Below are positions 40,325-62,946 of a DNA stretch of 64,000 nucleotides, one piece after another (the stretch's first letter is position 1; every line of letters begins with the position of its first letter). The position numbers and the translations under genes are program-made. Origin of the DNA: Candidatus Culexarchaeum yellowstonense. Lineage in GTDB: Archaea; Thermoproteota; Methanomethylicia; Culexarchaeales; Culexarchaeaceae. The notes beneath the pieces were generated by a model. That model had not been told where the DNA came from. It saw only the letters and a program-made list of their open reading frames with translations, and did not search any database. The stretch covers positions 74,007 through 138,006 of the forward strand of contig JANGFR010000002.1 of NCBI GenBank assembly GCA_024707015.1, written 5' to 3'.

Positions 40325-40786
40325 TCACAGTATGTTTAGATGGAAGGTTATTGGGACTGCTTCACCCCAAGATTGCCTTACTGGGCATATCCTTTGCGCC
40401 ATTTCAAAGCAGGAGTAAGCTTTCTCACGCTCCCACTTAGTATCCTTAAGCAACTTAACATTTATTGTGAAATCTATTTTCGTAAAAATTATCTTCTCCA
40501 AACCTTCCACACGCATGTTAACTTTGGCTATTGTCTCAAGGCTTTGTATACCGAGTTTTGAGTTACCCGCTATTAATAGGAAGAGGGTGTTCATACATGA
40601 AGCAAGAGCTGCTGCGAAGAGATTTTCCGGTGTGGGATACCCTCTCTCACCACCAAATTCCACAGGAGGACTTATCGTTGCAATCTCCCTATCATCAACA
40701 AAAACTTTTGATTTCACACCTGAGGATAATGCTGCTCTACCCTCGAAAACGAATTCACTCATAAAATGACAATAGTAATACTTCAA
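40325..40786 (-). CDS. osmC: OsmC/Ohr family peroxiredoxin-like protein
   Basis: GYPTPENLFAAALASCMNTLF contains the OsmC catalytic Cys-containing helix. The likely true start is the internal Met (MSEFVFEG). Confidence 0.8.
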   Translation of the reverse strand: MKYYYCHFMSEFVFEGRAALSSGVKSKVFVDDREIATISPPVEFGGERGYPTPENLFAAALASCMNTLFLLIAGNSKLGIQSLETIAKVNMRVEGLEKIIFTKIDFTINVKLLKDTKWEREKAYSCFEMAQRICPVRQSWGEAVPITFHLNIL

Positions 40787-41929: not shown

Positions 41930-42583
41930 CTATTCTGGCTTTACGATTATTGGCATAGTTACGCTTCCACTATAGACTTTTACATGGAATCCAATGGTTA
42001 TGTATTTGAATTCGCTATACCATATTTCGGCATATGGGTTTATGATTACATGGACTGCATAGTCAATATGTGCATACAAAGTTTTTGGGAGGTAATCGCG
42101 ACCACGATGAATGTGATAAACGAAAATGGATTCGGATAAATTACCGGGGAAAGATTTATAATAAAGAAAGGAGGTGGTGGCATACCAGTCAATAGTGGTG
42201 TCATTGCGATAAGCGAATAAGTTGATCGCTTCAACCGTTACGATAAAGCCTTTTACTAATGGATTGTATGTTTTCTCATTTATCTTCTTTACTATAACGT
42301 TTATTTCATAAATGTCTCGTGGATTTATTGGGCTAAATATGGGTGTGGGGATGTATATGATTAATCCGAAATCAGCCTCCCCAAGAAAACCACTATAATG
42401 GATTATTGTGCTATTAAATTTTATACCTTTAAACCAGATTAGAGATCTATTGAAAGATTCTAACCCAATTGGGTTTAAGTGTTGTGGGCATGTGAAATAG
42501 TTTCCTAACAGAATAAACGCTAAGAGTATTGTTAAAAAGATTGTTATGCATTTTTTGTTTAGGTATTTCCTCATGATTATCAC
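41930..42583 (-). CDS. Hypothetical exported protein
   Basis: 217 aa. N-terminal signal/anchor (ITIFLTILLAFILLG). Aromatic-rich. Confidence 0.4.
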   Translation of the reverse strand: MIIMRKYLNKKCITIFLTILLAFILLGNYFTCPQHLNPIGLESFNRSLIWFKGIKFNSTIIHYSGFLGEADFGLIIYIPTPIFSPINPRDIYEINVIVKKINEKTYNPLVKGFIVTVEAINLFAYRNDTTIDWYATTSFLYYKSFPGNLSESIFVYHIHRGRDYLPKTLYAHIDYAVHVIINPYAEIWYSEFKYITIGFHVKVYSGSVTMPIIVKPE

Positions 42584-42691: not shown

Positions 42692-43057
42692 TTAGATTGG
42701 CATTGGAATTGTTGGTGTTATGAGTCGTGTTAGGCTGGAGAGGATGTAGGTTATTATTAGTATGAATAGGCTTCTGGACCAGCTTGATCTGTATATGAAT
42801 TTTATGATGGATAGGTATATTATGAGTTTTAGGATGTATGAGGCTTGGAATTGGTTGAATGATGATATTATTGAGTTCATTAGCATGATCATTGTGGAGG
42901 AGGCTATGGCTAGGGGGAGGCTTTTGAGTCCGACTATTTTGGAGCTTAAGTATATGATTATGGTTAATAGGATGAAGCTTATTGTTAGATAGGGTAGGGA
43001 TTGTAGGATTGATGTTGGGTCGTAATTGGTTGCAGTTGTTATGTTAAGATTTGTCAT
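42692..43057 (-). CDS. Small integral membrane subunit, last gene of the membrane-bound hydrogenase operon (possible Mrp/MbhA-G-like or NuoK/J-like piece)
   Basis: 121 aa with about 3 TM helices. Overlaps the upstream NuoI-like gene by 14 nt. Confidence 0.4.
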   Translation of the reverse strand: MTNLNITTATNYDPTSILQSLPYLTISFILLTIIIYLSSKIVGLKSLPLAIASSTMIMLMNSIISSFNQFQASYILKLIIYLSIIKFIYRSSWSRSLFILIITYILSSLTRLITPTIPMPI

Positions 43058-43616
43058 ATAGGACGTGCTTCCTTGTGTGGATATTTAGTTTGAAGCTTAG
43101 GGTTTTTCTGCAATTTGGGCATAGGTGTAGGTATTTTGGTAGATCTTCTTGGGCGTATTGTATGGCTTTAGCCTCCTTTAATCCACTCATTAACCTATCG
43201 GTGATGCGGTTAAGTTGCTTTTCTGGTGCAAAGTAGTTTCCGCAGTTAATGCATTTTGAAAGTTCAATTGTGTTTGAAACTTTGAGTTCCGATTTATTGT
43301 TTGATGCTATTTCGAATTTAGTGGTTAAGGTTAATGCATCTTCAGGGCATACTTCGGCGCAACGCCTACAAAACACACACTTATTCAAATTAATGTTTAA
43401 ATTACGTTTACCCTCCGCGTCTATGTATGTTAATGCACCGCTACTACATTGGCTAACGCATGCACTGCACCCAATACATTTATCTGCATTGAATTCGGGC
43501 ATACCGCGCAGAGTTTCTGGAACACTACTATACTTCTCAACGCCAACACCAGCAGGATACTTAATTGTGTATGGTTTACTTAGAGCTTCAATGGCTCTCT
43601 TAAATGATTTGAGCAA
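43044..43616 (-). CDS. 2x[4Fe-4S] ferredoxin subunit of a group-4 hydrogenase (NuoI/EchF/MbhN-like)
   Basis: CIGCSACVSQC...CP and CVFCRRCAEVCP are two CxxCxxCxxxCP motifs. A C-terminal Cys-rich tail includes CINCGNYF. 190 aa. Confidence 0.8.
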   Translation of the reverse strand: MLKSFKRAIEALSKPYTIKYPAGVGVEKYSSVPETLRGMPEFNADKCIGCSACVSQCSSGALTYIDAEGKRNLNINLNKCVFCRRCAEVCPEDALTLTTKFEIASNNKSELKVSNTIELSKCINCGNYFAPEKQLNRITDRLMSGLKEAKAIQYAQEDLPKYLHLCPNCRKTLSFKLNIHTRKHVLYDKS

Positions 43617-43617
43617 T

Positions 43618-44628
43618 TCATGCCACCCCCAAAATAAACCTGATGATTATGGAGAATATTATGGAGAATGCGGATAAGGGCCATAGGTACTTGATGGCCC
43701 ATGAGACTGCTTGATCAATTCTAAATCTTGGGGCTATTGAGTGAACTATGGATATTATGAGTGTGACTATGAAGCACTCCAATAGGAAGACTATGAAGTT
43801 GAATATTTGATTGTATATGCTTGTTGGTGGCAGTATAAGTCCCCCTGAAAGGAATAGGTTTACAAACAATCCGATGAGGACTGATGTTAGAATGTATTTT
43901 GAGGATAATATTGTTGCTAGAAGTTTTCCGGAGTATTCTGTGTATGGACCTGAAACTATCTCCACATCAGCTTCAGGTATTTCGAATGGGTTGAAGTGCA
44001 GTTTCCCAAGTACTGCAATTATGAAAACTATGGCTGCGAAGGGGTTTAGAAGGATTATTGGATAGGATTTCAGCTGAAAACTCATGATGCCGCCAATCGA
44101 TAATGAATTGGATATTATGGCTGAAGAGAATATTGATGAGAGCAATGAAACTTCAATTACAAGCATCAGCTCAGCCTCCCTCCTAGATCCAACAACACTC
44201 CAAGGTGATGATGATGCCAAACCACCCAAAACCCAGAATAGGGATACACCAATTAAAATGTATGTTATGAAGATTATGCTGAGCGGATTATCTGCAAGCA
44301 AGCTTAAACCACCATAAGATATAAAGTATGTGGATAAAACTGCCAGGATGAAGCTTACTATTGGTGATGAAACAAATAAACCTTTACGTGCACTTCTAGG
44401 TATAATCGTCTCCTTAAACATCAATTTCAAAACATCGTAGAGGGGTTGTAAAACCCTACTTGAACCTAAAAGCCCCCTCAACTCACCATGCATTGAAAGT
44501 AGTGGTCCAAGCCTATACTGACTCCTAGCATAAACCTTCCTAATCTCATAATTGAACAAGACTCCAAGGATGAAGCATAACACTGGAATAAATATTATTG
44601 CTAGGAGCACAACCATCACCCCCTCCAA
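43618..44628 (-). CDS. Membrane subunit of a group-4 hydrogenase (NuoH/EchB/HycD/MbhM-like)
   Basis: 336 aa with about 8 TM helices. N-terminal RKVYARSQYRLGPLL resembles the NuoH R-x-GPxxxG loop. Overlaps the large-subunit gene by 13 nt. Confidence 0.75.
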   Translation of the reverse strand: MEGVMVVLLAIIFIPVLCFILGVLFNYEIRKVYARSQYRLGPLLSMHGELRGLLGSSRVLQPLYDVLKLMFKETIIPRSARKGLFVSSPIVSFILAVLSTYFISYGGLSLLADNPLSIIFITYILIGVSLFWVLGGLASSSPWSVVGSRREAELMLVIEVSLLSSIFSSAIISNSLSIGGIMSFQLKSYPIILLNPFAAIVFIIAVLGKLHFNPFEIPEADVEIVSGPYTEYSGKLLATILSSKYILTSVLIGLFVNLFLSGGLILPPTSIYNQIFNFIVFLLECFIVTLIISIVHSIAPRFRIDQAVSWAIKYLWPLSAFSIIFSIIIRFILGVA

Positions 44629-46247
44629 CCCTTAAATGCTAGATTCTTAAATTCATCACCACTCAAAGTCCACTGCTCCCCCCTCTTGGAATCAACTATC
44701 ATTACACGATCTGTGCATGAGAAGCATGGGTCAACGCTACCAATAATTATTGGTGCATCTGCAAGTCTACAACCTTTAAGCATGAATTTGAGGGCTGCAA
44801 TATTACGGTAACTTGGAGTTCTAATCCTAACAGTGTGCGGTATATCCATACCATTCGAAATTACGTAGTAGACTAGTTCACCCCTAGGAGCTTCAACCTT
44901 ACTTAAAGCTTCACCCTCAGGGAATGGTTTAAGTTCTGAAGTAGCTACTGGTCCACCAATACTCTTCAACCTATCAACACATTGTAGACATATATCTATG
45001 GATACAAGGGTTTCCTTAACTCTAACCATAACCCTTGAAAGTACATCCCCAGCCTCCTCAACCACAACATCCCAACTTATATGCCCCTCATCATAGAATG
45101 AGTATGGACTATCCCTTCTAACATCAATCTTCCATCCACTAGCCCTAGCAGTTGGCCCTACAGCTCCAGCCTCCCTAGCATCACTTAGAGACATGACACC
45201 TACACCCTCAGTCCTACGCCTAACAATGCTATGTGAAGCTATATCTTCAGCTAGTTTTTTGAAATCCCTCTTAACTTCAAGCAGTTTACTTTCAACTTTA
45301 CTAAGCTGCTCCTTAGTGACATCGAATCTTACGCCGCCAATACTCATGGAATCTGCATGAACCCTATTGCCCGATAGCAATTCAATGCAATCCTGTATTG
45401 GCTCCCTAATCTTCCAAGCCCACATGAGCAAAGTTTTAAAGCCAATCAAGTCTCCTGCAACGCCAAGCCATAGGAGGTGACTATGTATCCTATTCAACTC
45501 AGCCATTAAAACCCTAATATACTCAGCCCTCTCAGGGACATTTACCCCAAGAATGCGTTCCACAGCATTCACGAAAGCCAATTGATGCGGAACACTACAT
45601 ATACCACATATCCTACCAACAAGGAATAGGTCACGCCAAAAAGTCCTACTCTCAGCCAACTTCATTATCCCACGATGATTCAAACCAACCTTAATATCCA
45701 CATCAACAACATCTTCACCATCAACGAATAACTTGAAGAATCCACCTTCAAGCATTGCCGGATGATATGGACCTATGGGTAGAGTGACTTGCTTAACCCC
45801 AGCCTTAGATTCACTGGAACTCTCAACTGGGTTAGGCCACTCAAAGGGGAGGAAGATGTGTCTAGGGTCGGGGTGACCATCAAACTCAACTCCAAGGAGC
45901 TCCATAGTCTCCCTCTCAGCCCAATTAGCTTGATAAGTCAATTGTGCAACTGATGGAAACTTCGCTGGTTCACCATCACCATAAGCATACAATATTACAT
46001 GGGCATGTCTATCTATGTGTTCAAGACTGTAGATGTGCATGAGCCTAATACCATCAAAACCCATGTCTGAAGCTGTGACATGGACAATTCTAGAGCCTAT
46101 GGAAAGCATGTATTTAGCTGCATCCAGAAGCCTATTTGGACTGGTCTTAACACGTACATGCTTACCTCCACAACCATAACCAGTAATTTCAAAATCGGGT
46201 TTAAGGATGTTTCCAAGCTCATTTAAAACATCATTTAAACTCTTCAT
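44616..46247 (-). CDS. [NiFe] hydrogenase large subunit, group 4, fused NuoC-like + NuoD-like (HycE/EchE/MbhL-type)
   Basis: N-terminal NuoC-like domain (about 150 aa), then RICGICSVPH (RxCGxCx3H Ni/Fe-binding motif L1) and C-terminal DPCFSCTDR (DPCxxCxxR/H motif L2). All four metal-ligand Cys are present. 543 aa. Confidence 0.85.
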   Translation of the reverse strand: MKSLNDVLNELGNILKPDFEITGYGCGGKHVRVKTSPNRLLDAAKYMLSIGSRIVHVTASDMGFDGIRLMHIYSLEHIDRHAHVILYAYGDGEPAKFPSVAQLTYQANWAERETMELLGVEFDGHPDPRHIFLPFEWPNPVESSSESKAGVKQVTLPIGPYHPAMLEGGFFKLFVDGEDVVDVDIKVGLNHRGIMKLAESRTFWRDLFLVGRICGICSVPHQLAFVNAVERILGVNVPERAEYIRVLMAELNRIHSHLLWLGVAGDLIGFKTLLMWAWKIREPIQDCIELLSGNRVHADSMSIGGVRFDVTKEQLSKVESKLLEVKRDFKKLAEDIASHSIVRRRTEGVGVMSLSDAREAGAVGPTARASGWKIDVRRDSPYSFYDEGHISWDVVVEEAGDVLSRVMVRVKETLVSIDICLQCVDRLKSIGGPVATSELKPFPEGEALSKVEAPRGELVYYVISNGMDIPHTVRIRTPSYRNIAALKFMLKGCRLADAPIIIGSVDPCFSCTDRVMIVDSKRGEQWTLSGDEFKNLAFKGWRG

Positions 46248-46253
46248 CCCAGA

Positions 46254-47777
46254 TCACCATAAATCCATAAATTTAAACATAACATCATTATGGAGGGATA
46301 CTCCATAGGCTAGAAAGCCATGATACATTATACCAATTATAATTGATATTAAAGCTAAGAGGATTATGGAGGTAAACATTAAATCTGGTTTCTCCCTAAA
46401 AACGCCACTACCCCTAGCTGAAGCCACAACTATTCCGAGGAAAACACATAAAACTATTATACCACTGAGATATATTAAACCCTCATATATTGAGCTTGGA
46501 ATACCATAAAACTGATTGCCAGAATAAATGATTGATTCCATCACCATATGCTTACCATAATAACCTGAGAAGAATGGAAGTAAACCTGAAACGCTCATCC
46601 CACCTAAAATAATGATGAGTGAAGTGATGGGCATAGACCTAGTTGCCATTGAAAGTTTAAGCCAATTCCTCTCATGGAAAACCTTCACATACAAACCTGC
46701 AGATAGGAAGAGGAGTGCCTTAGCAATTGAATGTGCAAATAGGTATAATGCTGATCCAAAAATGCATAGATATGCTTCATAACCACTCATGGAAACACTT
46801 AAACCAATTGATGAACCTAGGAACCCCATACTCAAAATGCTACTGAAGGCTATAACCCTCTTAATATCCCTATCAATTATCATCCCCAACACTCCAAGGA
46901 CAATATTAATTAAACCTGAAAGGGTTATGAAAGCCCCCACATCCATTGAAATTATTGGTGAAAGTGAATAAACGTATTTCAATATTGGGATATATGCAGA
47001 CTCTATTATTACACCTGAAAGCATTGCACTAACTGGTGAAGGTGCTTCCGAGTGAACTAATGGGAGCCATAGGAGTGCAAGTGGAGATGTGCCAGCCTTA
47101 ATTCCAAAACCTAAAAGGATTAGGTAGGAGGCAAATTTGAAATTCCAATCATAAATCCCATATCTACTCAACCTATAAACATCCAGTAGATCGAAGTGTA
47201 AACCATAACCATTGATGAGGAGGCATACCCCAATTATTATTAGAATAGACTCTAAAATCGACATGGCCAAGTATACTATAACTGAAATAACAGCTCTACC
47301 CCTACGTTCACCATACAAAACTAGAATTGCACTCAGAGCTGTGGAAGCTTCAAGAAAAAATAGCATGTAAATCAAATTGCTAGATGACACCAGCCCAATT
47401 AGTGTCGCTAATAGAATTGGTATAATTGCAAAGTACAATCTAAATCTACCATTCAATTCAGAATCGAAATATTTGATTGAGTATAATGTTGATATTAAAC
47501 CAACAATCAATATAACCTCACACATAGCATAAATAAGGAAATCCGTAAACAATTTTGATTCCAGCTCAGCTAACCCAGCTGCTAATATTCCTGCTAATGG
47601 TATGGCGTTAACAATTAATGAGGAGAATATCAATAATGTGGAGAGGTGTATGGAATATTTTGATTTAAATGCTGAAATTATTAGCGATGATAAGAATAGA
47701 AGTGCATATGTCAATATGAGGTTAATGCTCACCCTTCTCATCCTCCATGAATGGTAGATTAAATATGTAGATTTCAT
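46254..47777 (-). CDS. NuoL/M/N-type (Mrp antiporter-like) membrane subunit of the hydrogenase (EchA/HyfB/MbhH-like)
   Basis: 507 aa with about 14 TM helices and conserved antiporter-like charged residues in the membrane. The start is possibly the internal Met (MRRVSINLIL). Confidence 0.75.
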   Translation of the reverse strand: MKSTYLIYHSWRMRRVSINLILTYALLFLSSLIISAFKSKYSIHLSTLLIFSSLIVNAIPLAGILAAGLAELESKLFTDFLIYAMCEVILIVGLISTLYSIKYFDSELNGRFRLYFAIIPILLATLIGLVSSSNLIYMLFFLEASTALSAILVLYGERRGRAVISVIVYLAMSILESILIIIGVCLLINGYGLHFDLLDVYRLSRYGIYDWNFKFASYLILLGFGIKAGTSPLALLWLPLVHSEAPSPVSAMLSGVIIESAYIPILKYVYSLSPIISMDVGAFITLSGLINIVLGVLGMIIDRDIKRVIAFSSILSMGFLGSSIGLSVSMSGYEAYLCIFGSALYLFAHSIAKALLFLSAGLYVKVFHERNWLKLSMATRSMPITSLIIILGGMSVSGLLPFFSGYYGKHMVMESIIYSGNQFYGIPSSIYEGLIYLSGIIVLCVFLGIVVASARGSGVFREKPDLMFTSIILLALISIIIGIMYHGFLAYGVSLHNDVMFKFMDLW

Positions 47778-48015
47778 CCATATGGATGTATGGAGGTTTA
47801 GCTAAACCACACATGAAAACTGAATCCAAATCTACATTACGTGATTGAAGCCATGGAATTAAAACTATGAATGTCAAATAGAATATTGAAGTTGAAGCTA
47901 ACTCAACTAGGAATAATGTTAGAATGATATCTGATGTTAAGGGTACAATCCAAAATCCAATGGCCAACAATCCTAACGATATTATTAGGGGGATGTACAT
48001 GTACTTCAACTTCAT
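47722..48015 (-). CDS. Small membrane protein within the hydrogenase operon
   Basis: 97 aa with 2-3 TM helices. Overlaps the NuoB-like gene by 4 nt and its 3' end overlaps the annotated start of the NuoL-like ORF. Confidence 0.35.
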   Translation of the reverse strand: MKLKYMYIPLIISLGLLAIGFWIVPLTSDIILTLFLVELASTSIFYLTFIVLIPWLQSRNVDLDSVFMCGLAKPPYIHMDEIYIFNLPFMEDEKGEH

Positions 48016-48464
48016 TTAACCACCCCACACCTCTCACGTAGGATGCTTATTGCCTTAACAACACCATTTATTATGGCTTCAGGTTTTGGTGGGCATCCAG
48101 ATACAAAGACATCCACTGGGATAACCTTATCTGCTCCACCAAGGATTGCATAAGTTTCTTCACCCTCAACATCATTGAATATTCCACCAGAACAGGCACA
48201 TGAGCCTATGGCGACAACAACCTTTGGGTTTGGAACTTGCATATAAACTCTCTTCATGAATGATGCAATATGCTTTGTAACTGGACCTGTAACTATTAGG
48301 ATGTCTGCATGCCTTGGAGATGTAACCAATTTAATCCCAAATCTCTCAACATCAAATCTTGGGGTTAATGCTGCAACAAGTTCAATGTCGCATCCATTAC
48401 ATCCACCAGCATGTAAATGGTAAACCCATGGTGAATATGTGAACATCTTCTGTTTAAACCCCAT
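48012..48464 (-). CDS. [NiFe] hydrogenase small subunit, group 4 (NuoB/EchC/MbhJ-like)
   Basis: Cys ligands for the proximal [4Fe-4S] in GGCNGCDIE, GSCACSGG and C-P (SGCPPKP). 150 aa. Its start codon abuts the stop of the upstream HdrB-like gene. Confidence 0.85.
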   Translation of the reverse strand: MGFKQKMFTYSPWVYHLHAGGCNGCDIELVAALTPRFDVERFGIKLVTSPRHADILIVTGPVTKHIASFMKRVYMQVPNPKVVVAIGSCACSGGIFNDVEGEETYAILGGADKVIPVDVFVSGCPPKPEAIINGVVKAISILRERCGVVK

Positions 48465-49328
48465 TTAACCCACCAACCTACCAATTATATTTTCAGTTGA
48501 AATTGCATGTGTATTTAAGCCGAAACTTTCTGGCTTAATTCCAAAACTTAAAGCTAAGAGTTCACTTAAATGTAACACTGGAATCCCATATTCTAATCCT
48601 TCATCTTTGAATGTCAATTGGGCTTTCTCAAATTGATCGTAGCATGCTGGGCATGCAACTACAATTGCATTTGCACCTGAATTCTTTATGGCATCAAGCT
48701 TCCACTTAGTCCTCTCCCTCATAGCCTTATCCACCGAGTATAGCATTAATGGGTATCCACAGCAAACACGCTCCAAACCATAATCAACGATCTCAACATT
48801 CAAAGCCTTCACAATTTCCCTAAGATACTTGGCGCCCCTCTCATCACTCATCTTATATAATTTGCATCCTGGGTGAAGTGCAACTTTAAGCCAACTTAAA
48901 TCCACATTAACATTGCTTCTAATAGCATTTAAACCAACATCTTCAAACAATACTTCAGTATAATGTTTAACTTTAATAGTCCCATTAAATTTCAATCCAA
49001 ACCCCTTAAGATTCCCATTAATCTTCTCCCTCAAATCACTTGACTCAATAAGCTTCTCCCTAGCTTCATGCAGAGACTCCCAACACCCATTACACATCAC
49101 AATTATATCCCTCCCAATAGCTTCAGCTAAGGATAGGTTTCTAGCAGCCACAGTTAACCATAAATCTTCATCTACAAGTCTAGCTATTTCTGGAACTGGG
49201 CAGCATGAAGCTCCATTTATATCGAGGAGGTTGATTCCAAGTTTACTGGATATGGCTCTCATGGATGATTCAGCAAATGGCTGCATTGCAGGTATATAGC
49301 ATCCTAGGAATAGACTGTATTCAAGCAT
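48465..49328 (-). CDS. CCG-domain (Cys-rich) protein, HdrB/HdrD-C/GlpC/Sulfolobus-SdhC-like
   Basis: Two Cys-rich repeats: C...CCP...CNGC and C...CCG...CPAC (287 aa). The first has CCP instead of CCG. Confidence 0.75.
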   Translation of the reverse strand: MLEYSLFLGCYIPAMQPFAESSMRAISSKLGINLLDINGASCCPVPEIARLVDEDLWLTVAARNLSLAEAIGRDIIVMCNGCWESLHEAREKLIESSDLREKINGNLKGFGLKFNGTIKVKHYTEVLFEDVGLNAIRSNVNVDLSWLKVALHPGCKLYKMSDERGAKYLREIVKALNVEIVDYGLERVCCGYPLMLYSVDKAMRERTKWKLDAIKNSGANAIVVACPACYDQFEKAQLTFKDEGLEYGIPVLHLSELLALSFGIKPESFGLNTHAISTENIIGRLVG

Positions 49329-49343
49329 ATGGATACCTCCAAC

Positions 49344-49622
49344 CTAATATTTGAAATCCCTCCTATCAAAGTCAAATCCAATCCTTCTACCAGCACCAAT
49401 CGATTTAATGAGATTGAACATTTGATTCACATATTCAGTGTTGCTATATGCTGTTGGGGGTATGCTTGGCAAACCAATCCTACTCCTAGTCCTCTGCATA
49501 TATCTAGAAAGCATTGGAACATGACCAGTTCTAAGTATACTCCTAATTGGAGATTTAAGTGAATCCTGCAATCCCACAATATCCTTCCTTAATGGGTGAA
49601 TTTTACCTTCGCTGGAGCTCAT
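49344..49622 (-). CDS. Small basic protein of unknown function inside the Hdr/hydrogenase operon
   Basis: 92 aa, Cys-free, Arg-rich. Overlaps the upstream polyferredoxin gene by 4 nt and has a 15-nt gap to the downstream gene. Confidence 0.3.
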   Translation of the reverse strand: MSSSEGKIHPLRKDIVGLQDSLKSPIRSILRTGHVPMLSRYMQRTRSRIGLPSIPPTAYSNTEYVNQMFNLIKSIGAGRRIGFDFDRRDFKY

Positions 49623-50104
49623 GATCTCACCCTCTCCAAAACCTCCCTCCTAGGTAATACTTGAAGTGCACCAGTACTACAATACTTTGCACATAGAAAT
49701 TCACCTTTACATGCATCGCATTTAACGCTAACCCTCAACCTCTCATCGAAAAAAGGTATTGAGATGGGGCATGCATAATTACAGCTTCTACAACCAATAC
49801 ATAGAGCTGGATTTATGAGTACAAATCCTGTTACAGTATCCTTACTTATAGCTTTAGGTTCCACTGGACATGCAGCCATACAAAATGGGTCTTGACAATG
49901 ACTGCAGTAGTTGTTTATGAAGAGTGGATTCCCCTCAGGGTTCAATGCCACCATCAAGTATGCCTTCGAAATATCAATTACCCCATAATGCTTGTATGAG
50001 CAAACCTCCATGCAATATAGGCATCCTGAACATTTATTTGGATCGTAGAAGAGCACTTTCTGTTCCTCTAAATTCAAGGTGCATGCCCCACAACAATTTT
50101 TCAC
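49619..50104 (-). CDS. Polyferredoxin, 4x[4Fe-4S] (HycB/DmsB/HdrC-like electron-transfer subunit)
   Basis: Four CxxCxxCx3C-type motifs: CSGCLYCMEVC, CSHCQDPFCMAACP, CIGCRSCNYACP and CDACKGEFLCAKYC. 161 aa. Confidence 0.8.
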   Translation of the reverse strand: MKNCCGACTLNLEEQKVLFYDPNKCSGCLYCMEVCSYKHYGVIDISKAYLMVALNPEGNPLFINNYCSHCQDPFCMAACPVEPKAISKDTVTGFVLINPALCIGCRSCNYACPISIPFFDERLRVSVKCDACKGEFLCAKYCSTGALQVLPRREVLERVRS

Positions 50105-50502
50105 TGCTGATACTTAGAGTACTCCTCGGCAGTTAAAAGTTCATCCTTCTCCTCTTCCCACTTTGTTGGTTGAATTATAACTAGCCATCCAGCTCCATAT
50201 GGATCTGCATTAACAAGTGATGGCTGCTTTAAAACCCTCTCATTAACCTGCTTTATAACACCACTAACTGGGGATATAAGGTCGCTGGTGGCTTTAGTGG
50301 ACTCTATAACTCCGAATGGCTCGTACTGTGAAACTGTTGTGCCAACATTCTCTAATCTAATTCTCCTAACGGTCTTCAGCATCTTTTGTGCATAATCTGT
50401 TATCCCAACCCTAACGGTTCCATCGGGCAGAAGTTCAGCCCATGTATGGTCTGGAATGTAATATATGCCTTCACGCAAAACATAACTCTTACTCATACCC
50501 AC
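50101..50502 (-). CDS. Glycine-cleavage H-protein-like lipoyl-carrier protein (GcvH/LbpA-like)
   Basis: HTWAEL...VRVGITDYAQKML...ESTKATSDLISPVSGVI...NADPYGAGW reproduces the GcvH fold motifs (HxW, GITDxAQ, ESVKAxSDxxxPxSG, NxDPYGxGW), with the lipoyl-Lys in ESTKA. 133 aa. No gcvT or gcvP nearby. Confidence 0.75.
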   Translation of the reverse strand: MGMSKSYVLREGIYYIPDHTWAELLPDGTVRVGITDYAQKMLKTVRRIRLENVGTTVSQYEPFGVIESTKATSDLISPVSGVIKQVNERVLKQPSLVNADPYGAGWLVIIQPTKWEEEKDELLTAEEYSKYQQ

Positions 50503-50593: not shown

Positions 50594-52270
50594 TTAAATT
50601 GGGAATATTGGTATGGCTTTGGATAGAACCTTTTCCCCTCTATATTCTGGTAGTAGCATTGGTGCACGCCTATCCTTTGGAGCGCCGATCTTCTCAAGCT
50701 CTTCAACATATCTTGGTATGTGATTCAATGTTAGCTTCCCTGGGCTAGCACCACTCTTAACATATTTTGCAGCTGAAATGCCAGCTCTCCTACCATAGAC
50801 TTGGGTGTCTAGCAGTGAGTTGCCCATAAGTCTATTCTTCCCATGAACCCCACTTGTAACCTCCCCAGCTGCGAAGAAACCTTCAATTATTCCATTGGCA
50901 TCTAAAACCTGTCCATACTTGTTTATACATACGCCGCCATTCATGTAGTGTAATGTTGGGAAGACGAGTATAGGCTCTTTTGTGACATCTATACCGAACC
51001 TTGCATACATCCTATATACTGAGGATAGATACCTCTTAGTGGCGCCTTCTCCTCTAACAATGTCCACCATTGGAGTATCAAGCCAAACCCCCCTAACCCC
51101 AGTCGGCGTAACTATACCCTTGTTTCTACCATAGCATTCCCTTATTATTGCCGCTGAGACAGCATCTCTAGTTTCGAGTGGATATACGAATTGTTCACCA
51201 TCAATGTTAACTAGCTGTGCACCCATGGATCTAACTTTCTCAGTTATGAGCAATCCAAGTATCTGATCTGGGTACGCTGCACCTGTTGGATGGTATTGTG
51301 TGGCGTCTAGATCCCTTAGCTTTGCCCCAACCCTATAAGCTAGGACTACTCCATCCATTGTGGCTCCATAGTGATTTGTGGTTGGGAAGTTTTGTATGTG
51401 TAGTCTACCATAACCTCCAGTGGCTAAGACTACGGCTTTAGCTCTAGCAACATAATACTCCTTTGTCTCCATATTCCATAGTATTGCACCTGTAACTCTA
51501 TTTCCAGAATCATCTGTTAGCAATTCTATTGCTGGAGAAAATTCCAGTATGCGTATCCCCCTATTCAATACTTCATCCATCAATACACGCATGATTTCAA
51601 GTCCAGTGTAATCTTTGCATGAGTGCATCCTATTCCTAGATGTACCTCCACCTGAAACTTCAATCATCGTTCCATCGGGCTCCTTATCGAACATGACGCC
51701 TAAATCTTCAAGCCACTTTATTATGAATGGGGCATCCCTGACAAGCTCCCTAACGAGCTCAGGGTCATTTGTGTACTGTCCACCACCCATAATGTCTAGG
51801 AAGTGTCTTGCAGGGCTATCATTCGGTCTATCTGCAGCCTGTATACCTCCTTGAGCCATCTTGGTATTTGCATCCCCAAACCTAAGCTTTGTGGCTATGA
51901 GAATGTTCTCTGCAGGTATACCCTCAATGTTAGCCCATAATGCTGCAGAAGCCCCTGCACCTCCACCTCCAATCACAAGTATATCTACATCGTAATCTAT
52001 CTTGCTCAAATCTATATCCTTTGGATCTATTAGTGGATAGGCTTCAATGAGGTTTGCAACTTCATGTGGAACCATTAATCCAGCACTTGGGCCAATCTTT
52101 ATAGGCCTCTTAGTCCCCTCCTTATAATCTGGATGCCAAGTTTTGAGGAGCTCCATCTTCTCATCTGGGCTAAGCCGTCTATACCTCTCCTTAAGCCTCC
52201 TCTCCCTAGTCTCCTCCACAATCTTAATGTATTCCCTCATGTAATCTGGATACCCAATCTTCTGAGACAT
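50594..52270 (-). CDS. FAD flavoprotein of the fumarate reductase/succinate dehydrogenase/L-aspartate oxidase superfamily (non-covalent-FAD type)
   Basis: DVDILVIGGGGAGASAA dinucleotide fold and HPTG active-site motif. C-terminal RLMGNSLLDTQVYGRRAG. The covalent-FAD histidine position reads ANTKMAQGG (K, not H), as in NadB and TfrA. An unusual ~90-aa N-terminal extension precedes the FAD fold. 558 aa. Confidence 0.8.
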   Translation of the reverse strand: MSQKIGYPDYMREYIKIVEETRERRLKERYRRLSPDEKMELLKTWHPDYKEGTKRPIKIGPSAGLMVPHEVANLIEAYPLIDPKDIDLSKIDYDVDILVIGGGGAGASAALWANIEGIPAENILIATKLRFGDANTKMAQGGIQAADRPNDSPARHFLDIMGGGQYTNDPELVRELVRDAPFIIKWLEDLGVMFDKEPDGTMIEVSGGGTSRNRMHSCKDYTGLEIMRVLMDEVLNRGIRILEFSPAIELLTDDSGNRVTGAILWNMETKEYYVARAKAVVLATGGYGRLHIQNFPTTNHYGATMDGVVLAYRVGAKLRDLDATQYHPTGAAYPDQILGLLITEKVRSMGAQLVNIDGEQFVYPLETRDAVSAAIIRECYGRNKGIVTPTGVRGVWLDTPMVDIVRGEGATKRYLSSVYRMYARFGIDVTKEPILVFPTLHYMNGGVCINKYGQVLDANGIIEGFFAAGEVTSGVHGKNRLMGNSLLDTQVYGRRAGISAAKYVKSGASPGKLTLNHIPRYVEELEKIGAPKDRRAPMLLPEYRGEKVLSKAIPIFPI

Positions 52271-52273
52271 AAC

Positions 52274-52981
52274 CTATCCCTCCGGACTTTCAATATCCCT
52301 ACTATCATACAACTTCTTCAGTTCAGCAGAGCTCATTTTAACCAGCTTATCAAGTTCCATATCAAATTTCCCCTCCTCTATCTCCTTAACCCTAATTTCA
52401 AGATGCTTGGCTTTTGGAGCCATATATTTGCCATAGAGCCTCCTAACCAACTGAAATACGTGATAATGGATTATTTCAGCTGGACATCTAATGCTACATA
52501 ATCCACATGAAATGCAGTCAAAGCATAACTCAGCGGCTTTGGCTATATCCCCCCTCTTAATCATCTGTATTGCATCCATAACCTGCAATTCCTGTGGGCA
52601 TGCCTTAGTACAAGAATTGCATGCAACACATCTAGCTACTTCGGGATATAATGCCAATACATTTGCACCTGTAGGCTTTAACTCCTCAATATTATACTTA
52701 ACCTTCTCCGCTGGTGCAAAGGGTATTTGAACAAGGTACATTCCATCTTGAACTGTTGTTTGGCATGCTAGAGCTGTGTAGAGCCTATAATCCCCCTTAA
52801 GCCTATATATCGTTGCACATGCACCGCAGAATCCACCCCTACAACCAGCACCCCTAATATACTGGTATCCAGCATACTCAACAGCCTTCATTATAGTTAT
52901 CCCAGCAGGAACTTCATACTCCTTACCCATAATGTATATTTTCACGGTCCTCTTAGGTTCAGTTTGACCCGCCATGTTCAT
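52274..52981 (-). CDS. Iron-sulfur subunit, SdhB/FrdB-like (2Fe-2S plus 2x[4Fe-4S]-type Cys clusters)
   Basis: Plant-ferredoxin-like CRGGFCGAC...C, then CVACNSCTKACP and CFDCISCGLCSIRCP. 235 aa. Overlaps the downstream HdrB gene by 4 nt. Confidence 0.75.
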   Translation of the reverse strand: MNMAGQTEPKRTVKIYIMGKEYEVPAGITIMKAVEYAGYQYIRGAGCRGGFCGACATIYRLKGDYRLYTALACQTTVQDGMYLVQIPFAPAEKVKYNIEELKPTGANVLALYPEVARCVACNSCTKACPQELQVMDAIQMIKRGDIAKAAELCFDCISCGLCSIRCPAEIIHYHVFQLVRRLYGKYMAPKAKHLEIRVKEIEEGKFDMELDKLVKMSSAELKKLYDSRDIESPEG

Positions 52982-53832
52982 CCACCACCAATTTTACTCT
53001 TAAAGATTGAAAGGGTTTCTTGGGATAGTTTTTCGTCGAGGCCCATGGCATAAGCCATCAACTCAGTGAAATATAGTGTTGGTATATTAAATTTGTTTCT
53101 AACGATATTTAAGTTGTAATGGCAAAGTGGACATGCAGTTATTATCATATCTGCACCCCACCTCCCAGCAGCCCTAACTATCTCCCCAACAGTCCTCTCA
53201 ACCATACTCCTATCATAAACCACATTATAAGAACCACAACACCTCTTCTCATATGGGAATTTAATGGGCTTAGCGCCTAAACTGGAGATCAAATCTGATA
53301 GTATGTGTGGATCTTCAGGGTCATCTATACCAATACCCCTTGGTCTAAGTAGTGAACAACTATAGAATGGTGCAACCTTTAATTTGCTTAAATCCCTCTT
53401 AACAGCCTCCCTAACCCTCTTTAAACCTATGATATTATCATCCAATATTATTTCAAGCACATGCTTAACATCCACACCACAATTATATCTAGGCTCATCA
53501 TCCATGTACTTACTTAGATTGTCAAGCTTCTCAGGATCACTTGTAACGATCTCATTAACCTTCTTCAATGTGCTATAACACATGGAGCATAGGGTTATAA
53601 GCCTATTATCCCCAACCTTACCCATAAACTCCTGAGCCCTTACAAGATCCCTCAGTGGAGCAACATGCTGCATAACTGCATCAGCAGAATACTCATACAT
53701 CACACCACAGCAATTCCATCTATCCAGCTCCACAAGCTCCACATCAAAAAGCTTCAAAACTGCAATGGCGGAATCCTCATAGCTTTTAGCGTAATCCTTA
53801 ACTGAGCAGCCAGGGTAATACATGAACTTCAA
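52978..53832 (-). CDS. hdrB: Heterodisulfide reductase subunit B (two CCG domains)
   Basis: PGCSV...CCG...CSMC and C...CCGSY...CPLC give two full Cx(n)CCGx(n)CxxC repeats. 284 aa. Confidence 0.8.
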   Translation of the reverse strand: MKFMYYPGCSVKDYAKSYEDSAIAVLKLFDVELVELDRWNCCGVMYEYSADAVMQHVAPLRDLVRAQEFMGKVGDNRLITLCSMCYSTLKKVNEIVTSDPEKLDNLSKYMDDEPRYNCGVDVKHVLEIILDDNIIGLKRVREAVKRDLSKLKVAPFYSCSLLRPRGIGIDDPEDPHILSDLISSLGAKPIKFPYEKRCCGSYNVVYDRSMVERTVGEIVRAAGRWGADMIITACPLCHYNLNIVRNKFNIPTLYFTELMAYAMGLDEKLSQETLSIFKSKIGGG

Positions 53833-53838
53833 CCACGA

Positions 53839-54210
53839 TCACCCCGTAAGCTTCCTTGAAGCTGATATCAGAGCTATTTGAGGTAAATCCCCAAGCCCCT
53901 TAACCCTCCTCAAATCCACTGGATAAATGTTTTTACGTTGAACAATGGTTCTAAGGACATTTATCATTCTAGCTGGATCTATATCCCTCGGACACCTAAC
54001 ACTACAAGTATTACATGAAGCACAAACCCAAATGGTCTTGCAATTCAAAACCTCAGGCATATCGAGTTGAATCATCCTTATAACTTGATGTGGAGGAACA
54101 TCCATATCCTTAATCATTGGACAGCTACCACTACAAATACCACATTGAATACATAGGTATGGATTCTTCCCACTCAACTCATAAACAGTTTGAGGTAAAC
54201 CTCTAAACAT
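53839..54210 (-). CDS. hdrC: Heterodisulfide reductase subunit C (2x[4Fe-4S])
   Basis: CIQCGICSGSCP and CASCNTCSVRCP with the HdrC-type C-terminal extension. 123 aa. Confidence 0.8.
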   Translation of the reverse strand: MFRGLPQTVYELSGKNPYLCIQCGICSGSCPMIKDMDVPPHQVIRMIQLDMPEVLNCKTIWVCASCNTCSVRCPRDIDPARMINVLRTIVQRKNIYPVDLRRVKGLGDLPQIALISASRKLTG

Positions 54211-54221
54211 GACTACACCCC

Positions 54222-56612
54222 CTAAACCTTAATCCTCCCCCTATCCTCAACACTCAATGGGCCAAGCTTCTCCACAATGGATACAAGATCACCTAAATCC
54301 TTCACAAGCCTCTCAGCCATATCGACGGCTATGGTGTCAAATTTAAGCCTCCTAGCATCAATCCTATATTTCCTCATCTGGGATCTAGCCTCCCTAATAA
54401 CATCGTTAATTACATCTAAAACTTTGGGATGATATGGCGATGCCCCCTCAAGGCAGTCTCCAATGAAAACTCCATCAGCACCATACTTGAATGCACTCAA
54501 TATTATTTTTGGTGTAAGTCTACTTGCACTTGGAACAGTTATAACCCTAACCCTATTATCATAGGTAAGCCTACTGGTACCTGCAAGATCTGCAGCCCTA
54601 TAAGTGCAGGAGTCATCGAAGAATGCTATAACTCTAATTTCACCATCCCTCTTACTCTTAAGAGCCCCCTCAATCTGGCTTAAAATTTGCTTCTCACTGT
54701 AATGCTTCAATTCAATAGCCCCCCTTGGGCAGTATGGTATGCAACTTCCACAACCAACACATAGAGCTTCACTAATATGCGCCTTACCATCCACCATACT
54801 TATAGCCCCCAGCGGACACTTATCAACACATACTCCACAACCATTACATAATTCAGCAATTACATAGGCTTTTATTGGCTCTATAAGTATCCTACCCTGA
54901 CTTATGAGTCTAAGAGTTCTCCCAGCAGCTGCACTGGCCTGAGCCACACTATCAGCTATATCCTTAGGTCCCTGTGCACACCCACATATGAAAACCCCCT
55001 CCCTAAGCGTATCCACAGGCCTATACTTCGGGTGAGCTTCAAGGAGGAATCCATCTGGACCTATATTCAACTTGAGCTTCTTAGCCAACTCCTCAACACC
55101 ACGTGATGGAACTAGACCCACAGATAAAACCACAAGATCAAATTCATCTTCAATAAATCTTCCAGTCAACGTATCTTCAGCCCTAACTATAACCCTACCA
55201 CTCACGGGATCCTCAATGACCTCACTAACCTTCCCCCTAACGAATTTAACACCCAAATCCTGTGCCCTCATATAGTATTCTTCAAACCCCTTACCATAAG
55301 CTCTAATATCAATGTAGAATAAGGTTATATCCCTAGTTACATCTTGCCTCTTCAACGTCATAGCCTGCTTAATAGTGTACATGCAACAAACCCTCGAACA
55401 TCCAGGTCTACCAATCTGCTCATCCCTAGAACCCACACAATGTATGAATGCAATCTTCCGGGCAAGTTGACCATCAGATAACCTAATAACCTTACCACCA
55501 GTTGGGCCTACTGGCATAACCATCCTCTCCAATTGTGGCGCTATTATAACATTCTTGTATACTCCGTAACCGTACTGTTTAAGTTTAGTTGCATCGAAGG
55601 GCTCATAGCCAGTGGCAACGATTATTGCATCCACAACAATATCCAATATCCTCTCCTTATCATCGAAGTTTATAGCCTTCTGTGGGCAAACCCTCTCACA
55701 AACCCTACATATCCCCTTAGTTAAGTATAGGCAGGATTTTGGGTCTATGAGATACTTGTATGGAACAGCCATTTCATGTGGAACGTATATTGCCCTCCTA
55801 TTCCTAAGGCCATAATTGAATTCATCTGGCGCAGATGCAGGGCATTTTGATGCACATATCCCACAAGCAACACATTTACTCATATCAACATATCTCGGTT
55901 TAACCTTAACCTTAACATGGAAATCACCCACACTCCCACTAACATCCTCAACTTCACTGTAAGTCAATAATGTAATGTTTGGATGATTATACACTGCAGC
56001 CATTTTTGGTGAGAGTATACAGAGGGAGCAGTCGTCAGTTGGGAATGTGTAGCTTAACTGAGCCATCCTACCCCCAATTGCGGGTTCCTTCTCAACCAAG
56101 TAAACTTTACAACCAGAATCAGCCAAATCCAATGCAGCCTGAATCCCAGCTATGCCAGCACCAATAACCATAACCCTATTCCCAACCTTAACCTCCCTCG
56201 CCTTCAGAGGTTCATTAAGATTAACTTTACCAATAGCAGCCATTATCTGATCAATGGCTCTTCTGGTAGCCCCATCTGGATCGTTGGAGTGAACCCATGA
56301 ATCCTGCTCCCTAATATTAACCATCTCAAACAAGTATGGGTTTAAACCAGAATCCTCGAGGAGCTTCATGAATGTTGGACCGTGAAATTTTGGGGAACAA
56401 GCTGCAATGATAACCCTATTCAAATTATATCGTTTAATATCCTCCCTAATCTCCCTCTGACCAGCCTCAGAACATACATGCTCATTATCCTTAACTAGAA
56501 CAACACCATCAACACCGCTAATGGCCTTCAAAACCTCATTTATCCTAACGACATTGGATATATTTCCACCACAATGACAAACATAGACACCAATCCTAGC
56601 ATCATTAGCCAT
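54222..56612 (-). CDS. hdrA: Heterodisulfide reductase subunit A with a C-terminal MvhD-like domain fusion
   Basis: N-terminal VYVCHCGGNIS (HdrA N-domain), FAD-binding VIGAGIAGIQAALDLADSG, inserted ferredoxin motifs (CVACGICASKCP, CRVCERVCP), a C-terminal 2x[4Fe-4S] domain (CNGCGVCVDKCP / CVGCGSCIPYCP), then an MvhD-like tail (FFDDSCTY...FKYGADGVFIGDCLEG). 796 aa. Confidence 0.85.
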   Translation of the reverse strand: MANDARIGVYVCHCGGNISNVVRINEVLKAISGVDGVVLVKDNEHVCSEAGQREIREDIKRYNLNRVIIAACSPKFHGPTFMKLLEDSGLNPYLFEMVNIREQDSWVHSNDPDGATRRAIDQIMAAIGKVNLNEPLKAREVKVGNRVMVIGAGIAGIQAALDLADSGCKVYLVEKEPAIGGRMAQLSYTFPTDDCSLCILSPKMAAVYNHPNITLLTYSEVEDVSGSVGDFHVKVKVKPRYVDMSKCVACGICASKCPASAPDEFNYGLRNRRAIYVPHEMAVPYKYLIDPKSCLYLTKGICRVCERVCPQKAINFDDKERILDIVVDAIIVATGYEPFDATKLKQYGYGVYKNVIIAPQLERMVMPVGPTGGKVIRLSDGQLARKIAFIHCVGSRDEQIGRPGCSRVCCMYTIKQAMTLKRQDVTRDITLFYIDIRAYGKGFEEYYMRAQDLGVKFVRGKVSEVIEDPVSGRVIVRAEDTLTGRFIEDEFDLVVLSVGLVPSRGVEELAKKLKLNIGPDGFLLEAHPKYRPVDTLREGVFICGCAQGPKDIADSVAQASAAAGRTLRLISQGRILIEPIKAYVIAELCNGCGVCVDKCPLGAISMVDGKAHISEALCVGCGSCIPYCPRGAIELKHYSEKQILSQIEGALKSKRDGEIRVIAFFDDSCTYRAADLAGTSRLTYDNRVRVITVPSASRLTPKIILSAFKYGADGVFIGDCLEGASPYHPKVLDVINDVIREARSQMRKYRIDARRLKFDTIAVDMAERLVKDLGDLVSIVEKLGPLSVEDRGRIKV

Positions 56613-62942: not shown

Positions 62943-62946
62943 AACC

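Follow-up and report, generated by a model that had tools for sequence, protein, structure and literature searches.

A formate hydrogenlyase-like [NiFe]-hydrogenase with an HdrB-type partner at the Ehe locus of Candidatus Culexarchaeum yellowstonense: a predicted H2:disulfide oxidoreductase

We analyzed a stretch of 64,000 nucleotides from Candidatus Culexarchaeum yellowstonense (contig JANGFR010000002.1, positions 74,007 to 138,006; the window hereafter), on whose minus strand the genes of a membrane-bound [NiFe]-hydrogenase follow those of a GcvH-like protein, a polyferredoxin, a 92-aa protein and an HdrB-type CCG protein (HdrB'). This locus is the Ehe operon of Ca. Culexarchaeum yellowstonense. 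The encoded proteins are identical to those of the metagenome-assembled genome (MAG) YNP-LCB-024-027, with no sequence difference, and the 92-aa protein is MCR6624231.1 (100% identity). The core unit runs from 50502 down to 43044 with the GcvH-like gene first; its genes, and the open reading frame (ORF) beyond its last gene, are as follows.

50101..50502, minus strand: GcvH-like lipoyl-carrier protein (EheJ), 133 aa; Pfam GCV_H, E=4.5e-35
49619..50104, minus strand: polyferredoxin with 4×[4Fe-4S], HycB/CooF/AorA type (EheI), 161 aa; Pfam Fer4_11
49344..49622, minus strand: HdrC C-terminal arm (predicted), 'hdrC-like' (EheH), 92 aa; HdrC profile matches
48465..49328, minus strand: HdrB-type CCG protein (EheG, HdrB'), 287 aa; PF02754 twice
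48012..48464, minus strand: [NiFe] small subunit, NuoB/MbhJ/HycG-like (EheF), 150 aa; PF01058
47722..48015, minus strand: two-helix membrane subunit (EheE), 97 aa; no family assigned
46254..47732, minus strand: NuoL/HyfB/HycC-like antiporter subunit (EheD), 492 aa; PF00361, E=9.5e-33
44616..46247, minus strand: [NiFe] large subunit, fused NuoC-D (EheC), 543 aa; PF00329, PF00374 and PF00346
43618..44628, minus strand: NuoH/HycD-like membrane subunit (EheB), 336 aa; PF00146, E=2.9e-64
43044..43616, minus strand: NuoI/HycF-like subunit with 2×[4Fe-4S] (EheA), 190 aa; NCBIfam
42692..43057, minus strand: 121-aa hydrophobic ORF, only in the genus Culexarchaeum

Intergenic spacing ranges from -11 to +15 nt between gcvH and the NuoI-like gene, and these genes therefore form one operon. 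The GcvH-like gene (50101-50502) overlaps the polyferredoxin gene by 4 nt. For EheD, the longest ORF reaches 47777, while the called gene encodes 492 aa. All ORFs named in an earlier note on this DNA are present on the minus strand at the coordinates given there, and the CCG-gene stop does abut the small-subunit start with a 0-nt gap (48465/48464). The gene spacing and this abutment bear out its proposal that a disulfide-reductase-type module is joined to a hydrogenase module at the operon level. The range proposed there, 42692-50104, does contain an operon, but the operon starts one gene earlier, with the GcvH-like gene, and the lower limit takes in the 121-aa ORF, which lies outside the conserved module. 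Both this ORF (42692-43057) and a 217-aa ORF (41930-42583) were rejected as subunits, because they are absent from the close relatives L003, L012 and L004 (related loci carry L numbers throughout); the former is not counted in Ehe by the published description either (PMC9723716). The 217-aa protein, also encoded on the minus strand, has no family match, and C. nevadense has two copies of it (L002:5361-7656) with ~62% identity to the window protein. A scan of the whole 64-kb window against Rfam gave no match.

The Ehe complex of Culexarchaeia was described by Kohtz, Jay, Lynes, Krukenberg and Hatzenpichler (2022, ISME Commun 2:86, PMC9723716). That paper summarizes Ehe as HdrBC and an antiporter subunit together with a membrane-bound [NiFe]-hydrogenase, and it reports "SdhA", "CdhA", HdrA2B2C2 and GcvH as co-located with the complex. 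Its supplement names EheA-N for MAG YNP-24-27, including "EheG/HdrB", "EheH/HdrC?" and "EheJ/gcvH"; the series extends from the NuoI-like gene through HdrC2, and HdrA2 is given as co-located. In its tree, Ehe, Ehd of Methanomethylicia and Drh of Methanocellales make up a clade apart from the classified group-4 subgroups, and the HydDB result for Ehe in the supplement is 4b. The coupling of H2 and a disulfide with ion translocation was already put forward there for Ehe, and the lipoyl group of GcvH was mentioned as a disulfide candidate. The name Drh dates from 2015, and its transcripts are up in syntrophic cocultures of Methanocella conradii; in a later cultivation paper, a related complex, Ehg, is reported to be expressed in a Methanonezhaarchaeia strain, and an Ehd-like complex is noted in other genomes of the class. 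An operon of hydrogenase and HdrB is thus already known at the genomic level, from the published Ehe and from the Drh/Ehd/Ehe family of HdrB-linked hydrogenases, and the novelty that the earlier note implied for an HdrD-like module on a hydrogenase falls away. Beyond PMC9723716, the analysis contributes an identification of the HdrC arm, its fusions with NuoC, an architecture like that of formate hydrogenlyase (FHL), a link with lipoylation genes, new readings of "CdhA" and "SdhA", and the occurrence in MAGs of Hodarchaeota and Promethearchaeota. The fusions of NuoC with the HdrC arm and the Asgard homologues were not found in the available portions of that paper; the linkage to lipoate-assembly genes was not found in the available main text, and LipS is not among the genes of the available supplement. 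These additions refine hypotheses and leave the already-known status of the locus unchanged.

In the large subunit, the motifs RICGICSVPH (residue 212) and DPCFSCTDR (residue 506) together hold the four Ni-Fe cysteine ligands. Both motifs align column-for-column with those of HycE (7z0s_E, E=2.4e-82; the best PDB match) and MbhL (6cfw_L, E=1.5e-76), in agreement with the earlier statement that all four ligands are kept. The small-subunit cysteines 22, 25, 89 and 124 align with those of MbhJ (6cfw_J, E=1.6e-50) and HycG (7z0s_G, E=2.8e-42), and the proximal [4Fe-4S] set is complete. Both Ni-Fe motifs occur together with NuoB-, NuoH-, NuoI- and antiporter-like subunits, as in group-4 membrane-bound [NiFe]-hydrogenases. 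These features support the prediction that the membrane module is a genuine group-4 [NiFe]-hydrogenase rather than a Ni-free Mbx- or Nuo-like relative, as had been claimed. The large subunit extends 29 residues beyond the DPCxxCxxR motif, and this HycE-like C-terminal extension implies processing by a HycI-type protease. In a scan of the larger ORFs, neither hyp genes nor a maturation endopeptidase gene was found within the 64-kb window. Misread large-subunit motifs, or a genome lacking Ni-Fe maturation genes, had been named as observations that would speak against a hydrogenase; the motifs align as described, and among the genes given for MAG YNP-LCB-024-027 in the supplement of PMC9723716 are hycI, hypC and hypA, the last with one copy on the same contig. 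In a MAG labelled Methanospirillum, a gene for a HycI-type protease lies directly after a Drh-like operon (L014:15646-16146, plus strand), which fits the C-terminal extension of the large subunits of the family.

The same module had been called Ech-type. Ech (group 4e) has six subunits, EchA-F, with a separate EchD, an unfused EchE and ferredoxin as its partner. The large subunit of Ehe, by contrast, is a NuoC-D fusion with a C-terminal extension, and extra subunits are present. The assignment to group 4 stands, and the assignment to Ech does not, given the HycE-like fusion, the HycF-, HyfB- and HycB-like partners, the HydDB result of 4b and the separate clade in the published tree. The best NCBIfam match of EheD is hydrogenase 4 subunit B (156 bits), and that of EheA is 'formate hydrogenlyase complex iron-sulfur subunit' (126 bits). 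Judged by its predicted proteins, the module resembles FHL (HycBCDEFG) more than Ech. EheA (43044-43616) has four extra C-terminal cysteines, in a CxxC at residue 122 and a CxxC at residue 166, which look like a zinc ribbon or an extra cluster site.

The subunit without an assigned family, EheE, has no Pfam or NCBIfam match and consists of two transmembrane helices with an acidic tail. In an alignment it is conserved in all related clusters, with the motif ELAS..FY..F.V..P...F.CG..KPPY..DE.Y, and its family comprises ~127 clusters, all named hypothetical, with the same taxonomic spread as the family of the 92-aa protein. The AlphaFold2 (AF2) model shows a helical hairpin at residues 3-57 (predicted local distance difference test score, pLDDT, 73), and a Foldseek comparison of the model with the PDB returned generic helical hairpins only, with E above 1. 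The F-x-C-G motif of EheE was considered as the 'YECG' loop of NuoA/ND3 and dropped, because its placement relative to the transmembrane helices is wrong.

HdrB' has ten cysteines in total, at residues 10/42/43/79/82 and 155/189/190/226/229, and they form two CCG domains of five cysteines each (Cx31-39CCx35-36CxxC), as in HdrB. In solved HdrB, the ten cysteines ligate two non-cubane [4Fe-4S] clusters at the disulfide-reducing site. HdrB' aligns end to end with the solved HdrB chains 9sfi_C (E=7e-60) and 5odc_B (E=5e-58). It scores 250 bits against the HdrB equivalog model TIGR03288, under the cutoff of 345, and is therefore best called HdrB-like and not an assured reductase of CoM-S-S-CoB, the heterodisulfide of coenzyme M (CoM) and coenzyme B (CoB). 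The neighboring HdrB2 scores 125 bits against the HdrB model, half the score of HdrB'. The first motif does read CCP (residue 42; CCG at residue 189), as had been noticed, but it is no deviation: solved HdrB chains carry GASCCPAP where HdrB' carries GASCCPVP, so a first motif of CCP is normal for true HdrB. The polyferredoxin contains four complete CxxCx2-5Cx3C motifs, in line with the four clusters claimed, plus three extra N-terminal cysteines; it matches 8c0z_C (E=1.6e-24), HycB3 (7qv7_A, E=3e-12) and HycB (7z0s_B, E=3e-10) in the PDB. The term 'HdrD-like' proved loose. The CCG protein has no fused ferredoxin domain, no cytochrome b gene of the HdrE type is present in the cluster, and the anchor is the membrane arm of the hydrogenase; the parts are HdrB, an HdrC arm and a HycB/CooF-type polyferredoxin.

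The 92-aa protein has zero cysteines and an isoelectric point of 10.7, so it is Cys-free and basic as first described. A search with its single sequence finds four close relatives only, and the family surfaced through profile searches. Against TIGR03290 (NCBIfam), the protein matches positions 85-138 of 144 (E=1.5e-4). A profile of three family members matches residues 115-182 of HdrC in 5odc_C (E=1e-4), and a profile of 22 sequences matches the C-terminal ~65 residues of HdrC in five solved Hdr complexes, best in 8rvu_c (117-183, E=1e-13); apart from HdrC, nothing in the PDB falls under E=0.01 with this profile. The N-terminal ferredoxin domain of HdrC with its 2×[4Fe-4S] is missing, and only the arm is present. 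By this profile homology, the 92-aa protein is the cluster-less C-terminal arm of HdrC, and the description of it as an uncharacterized candidate novel subunit has to be given up, since it was already annotated as 'hdrC-like' in Methanocella and as 'EheH/HdrC?' in the supplement of PMC9723716. An exhaustive profile search of 1.8 billion representatives gave 19 clusters of the family, and a second profile search brought it to 111 clusters at 90% identity, with annotations such as "hdrC-like protein" (Methanocella arvoryzae) and "heterodisulfide reductase subunit C" (JGI). Three proteins (P0025, P0026 and L011:5262-5930 on the minus strand) consist of a NuoC-like domain fused to the HdrC arm. 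Read as Rosetta-stone fusions, they suggest that the arm lies beside the NuoC domain of the hydrogenase. The fusions belong to a further HdrB-linked hydrogenase cluster that has no antiporter subunit, in a Bathyarchaeota MAG where a divergent Ehe-like cluster adjoins.

The synteny table covers 13 related loci. The 92-aa gene is present in Methanocella (L009), Hodarchaeota (L010), Bathyarchaeota (L011, two clusters), Culexarchaeia (L003, L004, L006, L007 and L012), Promethearchaeota (L013) and the MAG labelled Methanospirillum (L014); L004, L006 and L007 belong to the marine genus Culexmicrobium, with L004 being Culexmicrobium cathedralense. A block of polyferredoxin, HdrC arm, HdrB' and group-4 hydrogenase is seen in every locus with the 92-aa gene that we examined. 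The co-occurrence that had been proposed as a check is thus found throughout the sampled loci, with the homologues always between the genes for the Fer4_11 polyferredoxin and the HdrB-like protein. The window carries the full set of the Drh/Ehd/Ehe block, namely a Fer4_11 polyferredoxin, a ~90-aa hdrC-like protein, an HdrB-like protein, a group-4 hydrogenase and a two-helix subunit of ~90-110 aa. A single scan of genome contigs with the large subunit found only Culexarchaeia and one Clostridia locus (L008), which encodes an Mrp/Mbh-type hydrogenase without HdrB. Asgard MAGs (Hodarchaeota, L010:7462-14888; Promethearchaeota, L013:1-7403) encode the polyferredoxin, HdrC arm, HdrB, antiporter subunit, two-helix subunit, NuoCD, NuoH, NuoI and NuoB. 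A second cluster of NuoA/NuoB/NuoCD type follows directly in these MAGs, no GcvH gene is nearby, and the hosts are non-methanogens.

Overall, Ehe is likely to be an FHL-like membrane [NiFe]-hydrogenase with an HdrB-type catalytic partner and an HdrC arm, acting as an H2:disulfide oxidoreductase. By analogy with homologous solved complexes, the Ni-Fe site would exchange electrons with the pair of non-cubane [4Fe-4S] clusters in HdrB' along a chain made up of the small-subunit cluster, two clusters of the HycF-like protein and four of the polyferredoxin. The HdrC arm may clamp HdrB' and tether it near the NuoC domain of the large subunit, and the polyferredoxin may stand in, as the electron wire, for the lost ferredoxin domain of HdrC. 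The complex would thus be a reversible H2:disulfide oxidoreductase, with ion translocation through its NuoH-like and antiporter-like subunits.

The gene linkage of the operon offers a candidate for the disulfide. The GcvH-like protein is a near-canonical GcvH (NCBIfam PRK01202, 134 bits against a cutoff of 117) with ESTKA as its lipoyl-lysine motif. In L004, L006 and L007 the block of gcvH, polyferredoxin, HdrC arm, HdrB' and hydrogenase is intact with gcvH at its head, and the HdrA2 unit lies on the opposite strand. The homologous cluster of Bathyarchaeota has a GcvH gene with an ESMK motif at the cluster end, and this position, other than that in the window, suggests an independent origin of the linkage. 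Genes for lipoate assembly and an OsmC-family gene lie downstream of the operon.

40325-40786, minus strand: OsmC-family gene, beside LplB/LipS2
40001-40279, minus strand: LplB, 2.4 kb downstream of the operon; NCBIfam 69 bits (cutoff 65)
38996-39991, minus strand: LipS2 lipoyl synthase; NCBIfam 365 bits (cutoff 270)

LplB and LipS2 are linked to the cluster in every Culexarchaeia locus with sufficient downstream sequence, and in L004 (13236-16111, plus strand) LplB, LipS2, LplA and LipS1 come directly after the NuoI-like gene on the same strand. OsmC/Ohr peroxidases are reduced by lipoyl proteins, and the OsmC gene beside the lipoate genes makes a lipoyl-dependent link to peroxide detoxification conceivable. 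The disulfide that we favor, with a confidence that falls just short of even, is the lipoyl group on the co-translated GcvH paralogue and not CoM-S-S-CoB. This choice follows from the coupling of gcvH to the operon, the GcvH of Bathyarchaeota, the linkage to lipoate genes, and the statement in PMC9723716 that the full biosynthesis of CoM and CoB is not present in the organism.

A second unit, upstream of the core, bears on what such a carrier could be connected to.

54222-56612, minus strand: HdrA2-MvhD fusion, 796 aa; 970 bits to NF040770
53839-54210, minus strand: HdrC2, 123 aa
52978-53832, minus strand: HdrB2/SdhE-like protein, 284 aa; matches SdhE and C-terminal TfrB
52274-52981, minus strand: protein with 2Fe-2S and 2×[4Fe-4S] ('EheL/CdhA' of the published description), 235 aa
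50594-52270, minus strand: FAD_binding_2 flavoprotein, SdhA/TfrA/NadB family, 558 aa

This unit (50594..56612) is co-directional with the core in the window, with a 91-nt gap to gcvH, and probably forms a soluble module of its own that has the thiol/disulfide carrier in common with the core. The 235-aa 'CdhA' matches TIGR00314 only at positions 394-457, with 41.5 bits against a cutoff of 781, and in the PDB it matches residues 410-467 of 9c0q_A, a ferredoxin insert, with a score like those of its FwdF and RnfC matches and modestly above that of PsaC. Its 235 aa compare with ~800 aa of the C-cluster subunit, and the catalytic domain of carbon monoxide dehydrogenase (CODH) is absent. Because the protein is a ferredoxin-type Fe-S protein only, CO-driven H2 evolution finds no basis in this gene. 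Its N-terminus matches the 2Fe-2S part of TfrB weakly. In the 558-aa flavoprotein, whose best score is to TfrA (321 bits, below the cutoff), asparagine stands where SdhA has the histidine for covalent flavin adenine dinucleotide (FAD) ('dANTkmaQGG' versus 'AHT' and 'SHT'). In the family of complex II, FAD that is not covalently bound is a trait of fumarate reductases and NadB rather than of succinate oxidizers. The unit looks as though it could be a split thiol:fumarate reductase attached to HdrA2.

These parts allow a fuller proposal, possible though rather unlikely in our estimate: that Ehe is a lipoyl-protein:H+ oxidoreductase whose partner is the lipoyl/dihydrolipoyl couple on a dedicated GcvH paralogue. 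The potentials of lipoamide (about -290 mV) and H+/H2 (-414 mV) would make the reaction between H2 and the lipoyl group near reversible. In one direction, Ehe would take the role of the L-protein and reoxidize dihydrolipoyl-GcvH from glycine cleavage, with the electrons leaving as H2. A dihydrolipoamide dehydrogenase (L-protein, Lpd) was found neither in the larger ORFs of the window nor in the available gene tables of PMC9723716, which prompts the speculative idea that Ehe replaces it; those tables do contain gcvPA, gcvPB, gcvT and two copies of gcvH. Running the other way, Ehe would use H2 to reduce lipoyl-GcvH while ions are translocated, and the thiol:fumarate-reductase-like unit would reoxidize it by means of the flavoprotein without covalent FAD, the 2Fe-2S/4Fe-4S protein, HdrB2/C2 and possibly HdrA2. 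Ehe and this unit together would make a quinone-free H2:fumarate respiratory loop with a protein-bound disulfide as the shuttle, comparable to Mvh-Hdr and Tfr in Methanothermobacter.

Several points weigh against the reading of Ehe as an H2:disulfide oxidoreductase with lipoyl-GcvH as its favored substrate. No biochemical characterization was found for any member of Drh/Ehd/Ehe, and the only expression evidence found for the clade is the upregulation of Drh in Methanocella conradii. Sequence does not reveal whether H2 is taken up or evolved, which ion is coupled, or the stoichiometry. Confidence in the AF2 model of the 92-aa protein is low (pLDDT 69; predicted template modelling score 0.35), and the model's top seven Foldseek matches, all of them HdrC chains, are weak (E=3e-3) and corroborate the sequence evidence only. 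The linkage to lipoate genes indicates that GcvH is probably lipoylated and does not show that HdrB' acts on it. LplAB-LipS1/S2 are moreover widespread in archaea and mostly unlinked to sHdr (Tanabe et al. 2023, PMC10332631). No GcvH gene lies beside the methanogen and Asgard homologues (L009, L010, L013 and L014); the family therefore has no uniform substrate, and the GcvH linkage could be lineage-specific. HdrB' is also nearer to methanogen HdrB (250 bits) than HdrB2 is (125 bits), which fits a small-molecule heterodisulfide too.

This closeness to methanogen HdrB, together with the methanogen and Asgard clusters without a nearby GcvH, would suit a low-molecular-weight disulfide such as a heterodisulfide of an unknown thiol cofactor. 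A sulfane or polysulfide substrate, or a protein persulfide as in sHdr-LbpA, would be in keeping with the fact that sHdr systems too combine Hdr-like proteins, a GcvH-like LbpA and LplAB/LipS1/S2 (PMC10332631). In either case GcvH would be at most a carrier or a bystander. We regard such substrates as unlikely: the pathways to CoM and CoB are incomplete according to PMC9723716, neither TusA, DsrE nor a rhodanese occurs among the scanned window ORFs of ≥ about 100 aa, the HdrA is a 796-aa HdrA2-MvhD and the gene set is not shdrC1B1AHC2B2, and gcvH is translationally coupled to the polyferredoxin gene. In the published alternative, 'SdhA' and 'CdhA' supply the electrons for H2 evolution by oxidizing succinate or CO, with HdrB' as one input among several that are interchangeable. 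It draws on the co-located and co-directional genes in the genus Culexarchaeum and on the polyferredoxin, to which other partners could in principle bind, in the way that FdhH docks on HycB. It appears improbable, given the missing CODH catalytic domain in the 235-aa protein, the asparagine at the covalent-FAD position of the flavoprotein, the 91-nt gap between the two units in the window, and the location of the unit on the strand opposite the hydrogenase operon in the marine genus. Least plausible by far is a membrane module that is not a hydrogenase and instead an Mbx/Mbs- or complex-I-like oxidoreductase. The NuoD and FpoD models of NCBIfam do score high, as they would with any group-4 large subunit, but both Ni-Fe CxxC pairs align with those of HycE and MbhL, the C-terminal extension is HycE-like, PF00374 (NiFeSe_Hases) matches, and a HycI protease gene adjoins the homologous L014 cluster.

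For the HdrB-linked group-4 hydrogenases (Drh, Ehd and Ehe, as well as Ehg), a direct coupling of H2, disulfide reduction and ion pumping has been proposed. If true, it would give methyl-reducing methanogens and, as here, non-methanogenic Thermoproteota an energy-conserving step in one enzyme. The re-analysis sharpens the hypotheses about this step: lipoylated GcvH would be the substrate, CO oxidation is dropped, fumarate reduction is preferred to succinate oxidation, and the HdrC arm would lie between HdrB' and the NuoC domain.

Elsewhere in the window, adjacent genes for rubrerythrin and an Fe/Mn superoxide dismutase (18153-19264, plus strand) point to oxidative-stress defence in a predicted anaerobe. 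ORFs of 239, 286, 220, 414 and 392 aa, located at 58343-60568, 25977-27221 and 1581-2759 on the minus strand, have no Pfam match at the thresholds used. The gene for a DUF6754 protein (60572-61366) adjoins those for a carboxylase-domain subunit (PYC_OADA/HMGL-like) and a biotin-carrier protein (61536-63489).

Among known systems, Drh of Methanocellales and Ehd of Methanomethylicia have a core gene order in common with Ehe, with the polyferredoxin, the ~90-aa hdrC-like protein, HdrB and a ~90-aa two-helix protein, followed by the NuoCD-fused large subunit, NuoH, NuoI and NuoB (L009), and the published phylogeny places the large subunits in one clade (PMC9723716). Drh differs from Ehe in lacking an antiporter-like subunit, according to that paper; none is present on the short L009 contig either. 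The hosts of Drh and Ehd are methanogens that make CoM-S-S-CoB, and GcvH or lipoylation genes are not linked to the cluster (L009). The sHdr-LbpA system with sLpl(AB)-LipS1/S2 (Cao et al. 2018; Tanabe et al. 2023, PMC10332631) shares with Ehe the Hdr-like CCG proteins, a GcvH-like protein and linked LplAB/LipS1/LipS2. Unlike it, Ehe has neither the sHdr gene set nor sulfur transferases among the scanned window ORFs, its GcvH is near-canonical, and a hydrogenase is attached. Membership of Ehe in sHdr-LbpA was thus rejected, because the 796-aa HdrA2-MvhD is not a short sHdrA and, the sulfur transferases being absent, only the GcvH-like protein and the LplB/LipS2 linkage are common to both.

In the methanogen complexes HdrABC-MvhAGD and HdrDE (5odc, 8rvu), HdrB is homologous to HdrB' over its full length with the same 10 cluster cysteines, and the arm of HdrC is homologous to the 92-aa protein. 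The Ehe core differs from them in lacking the HdrC ferredoxin domain, for which it has a separate polyferredoxin, and the HdrE cytochrome b. Since it also contains no HdrA flavoprotein, the Ehe core has no bifurcation site. The electron partner would be a membrane group-4 hydrogenase in Ehe, whereas it is soluble Mvh or methanophenazine in methanogen Hdr. The subunit set of Ehe corresponds one-for-one to that of E. coli FHL-1 (HycBCDEFG and FdhH; 7z0s), with a HycE-like fused NuoC-D, HycG-, HycF-, HycD- and HycC/HyfB-like subunits, and a 4-cluster HycB-like polyferredoxin that would bridge to a soluble catalytic partner. The gene order differs, and Ehe has the conserved two-helix EheE in addition. 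Where FHL has the molybdoenzyme FdhH, Ehe has HdrB' and the HdrC arm in its place.

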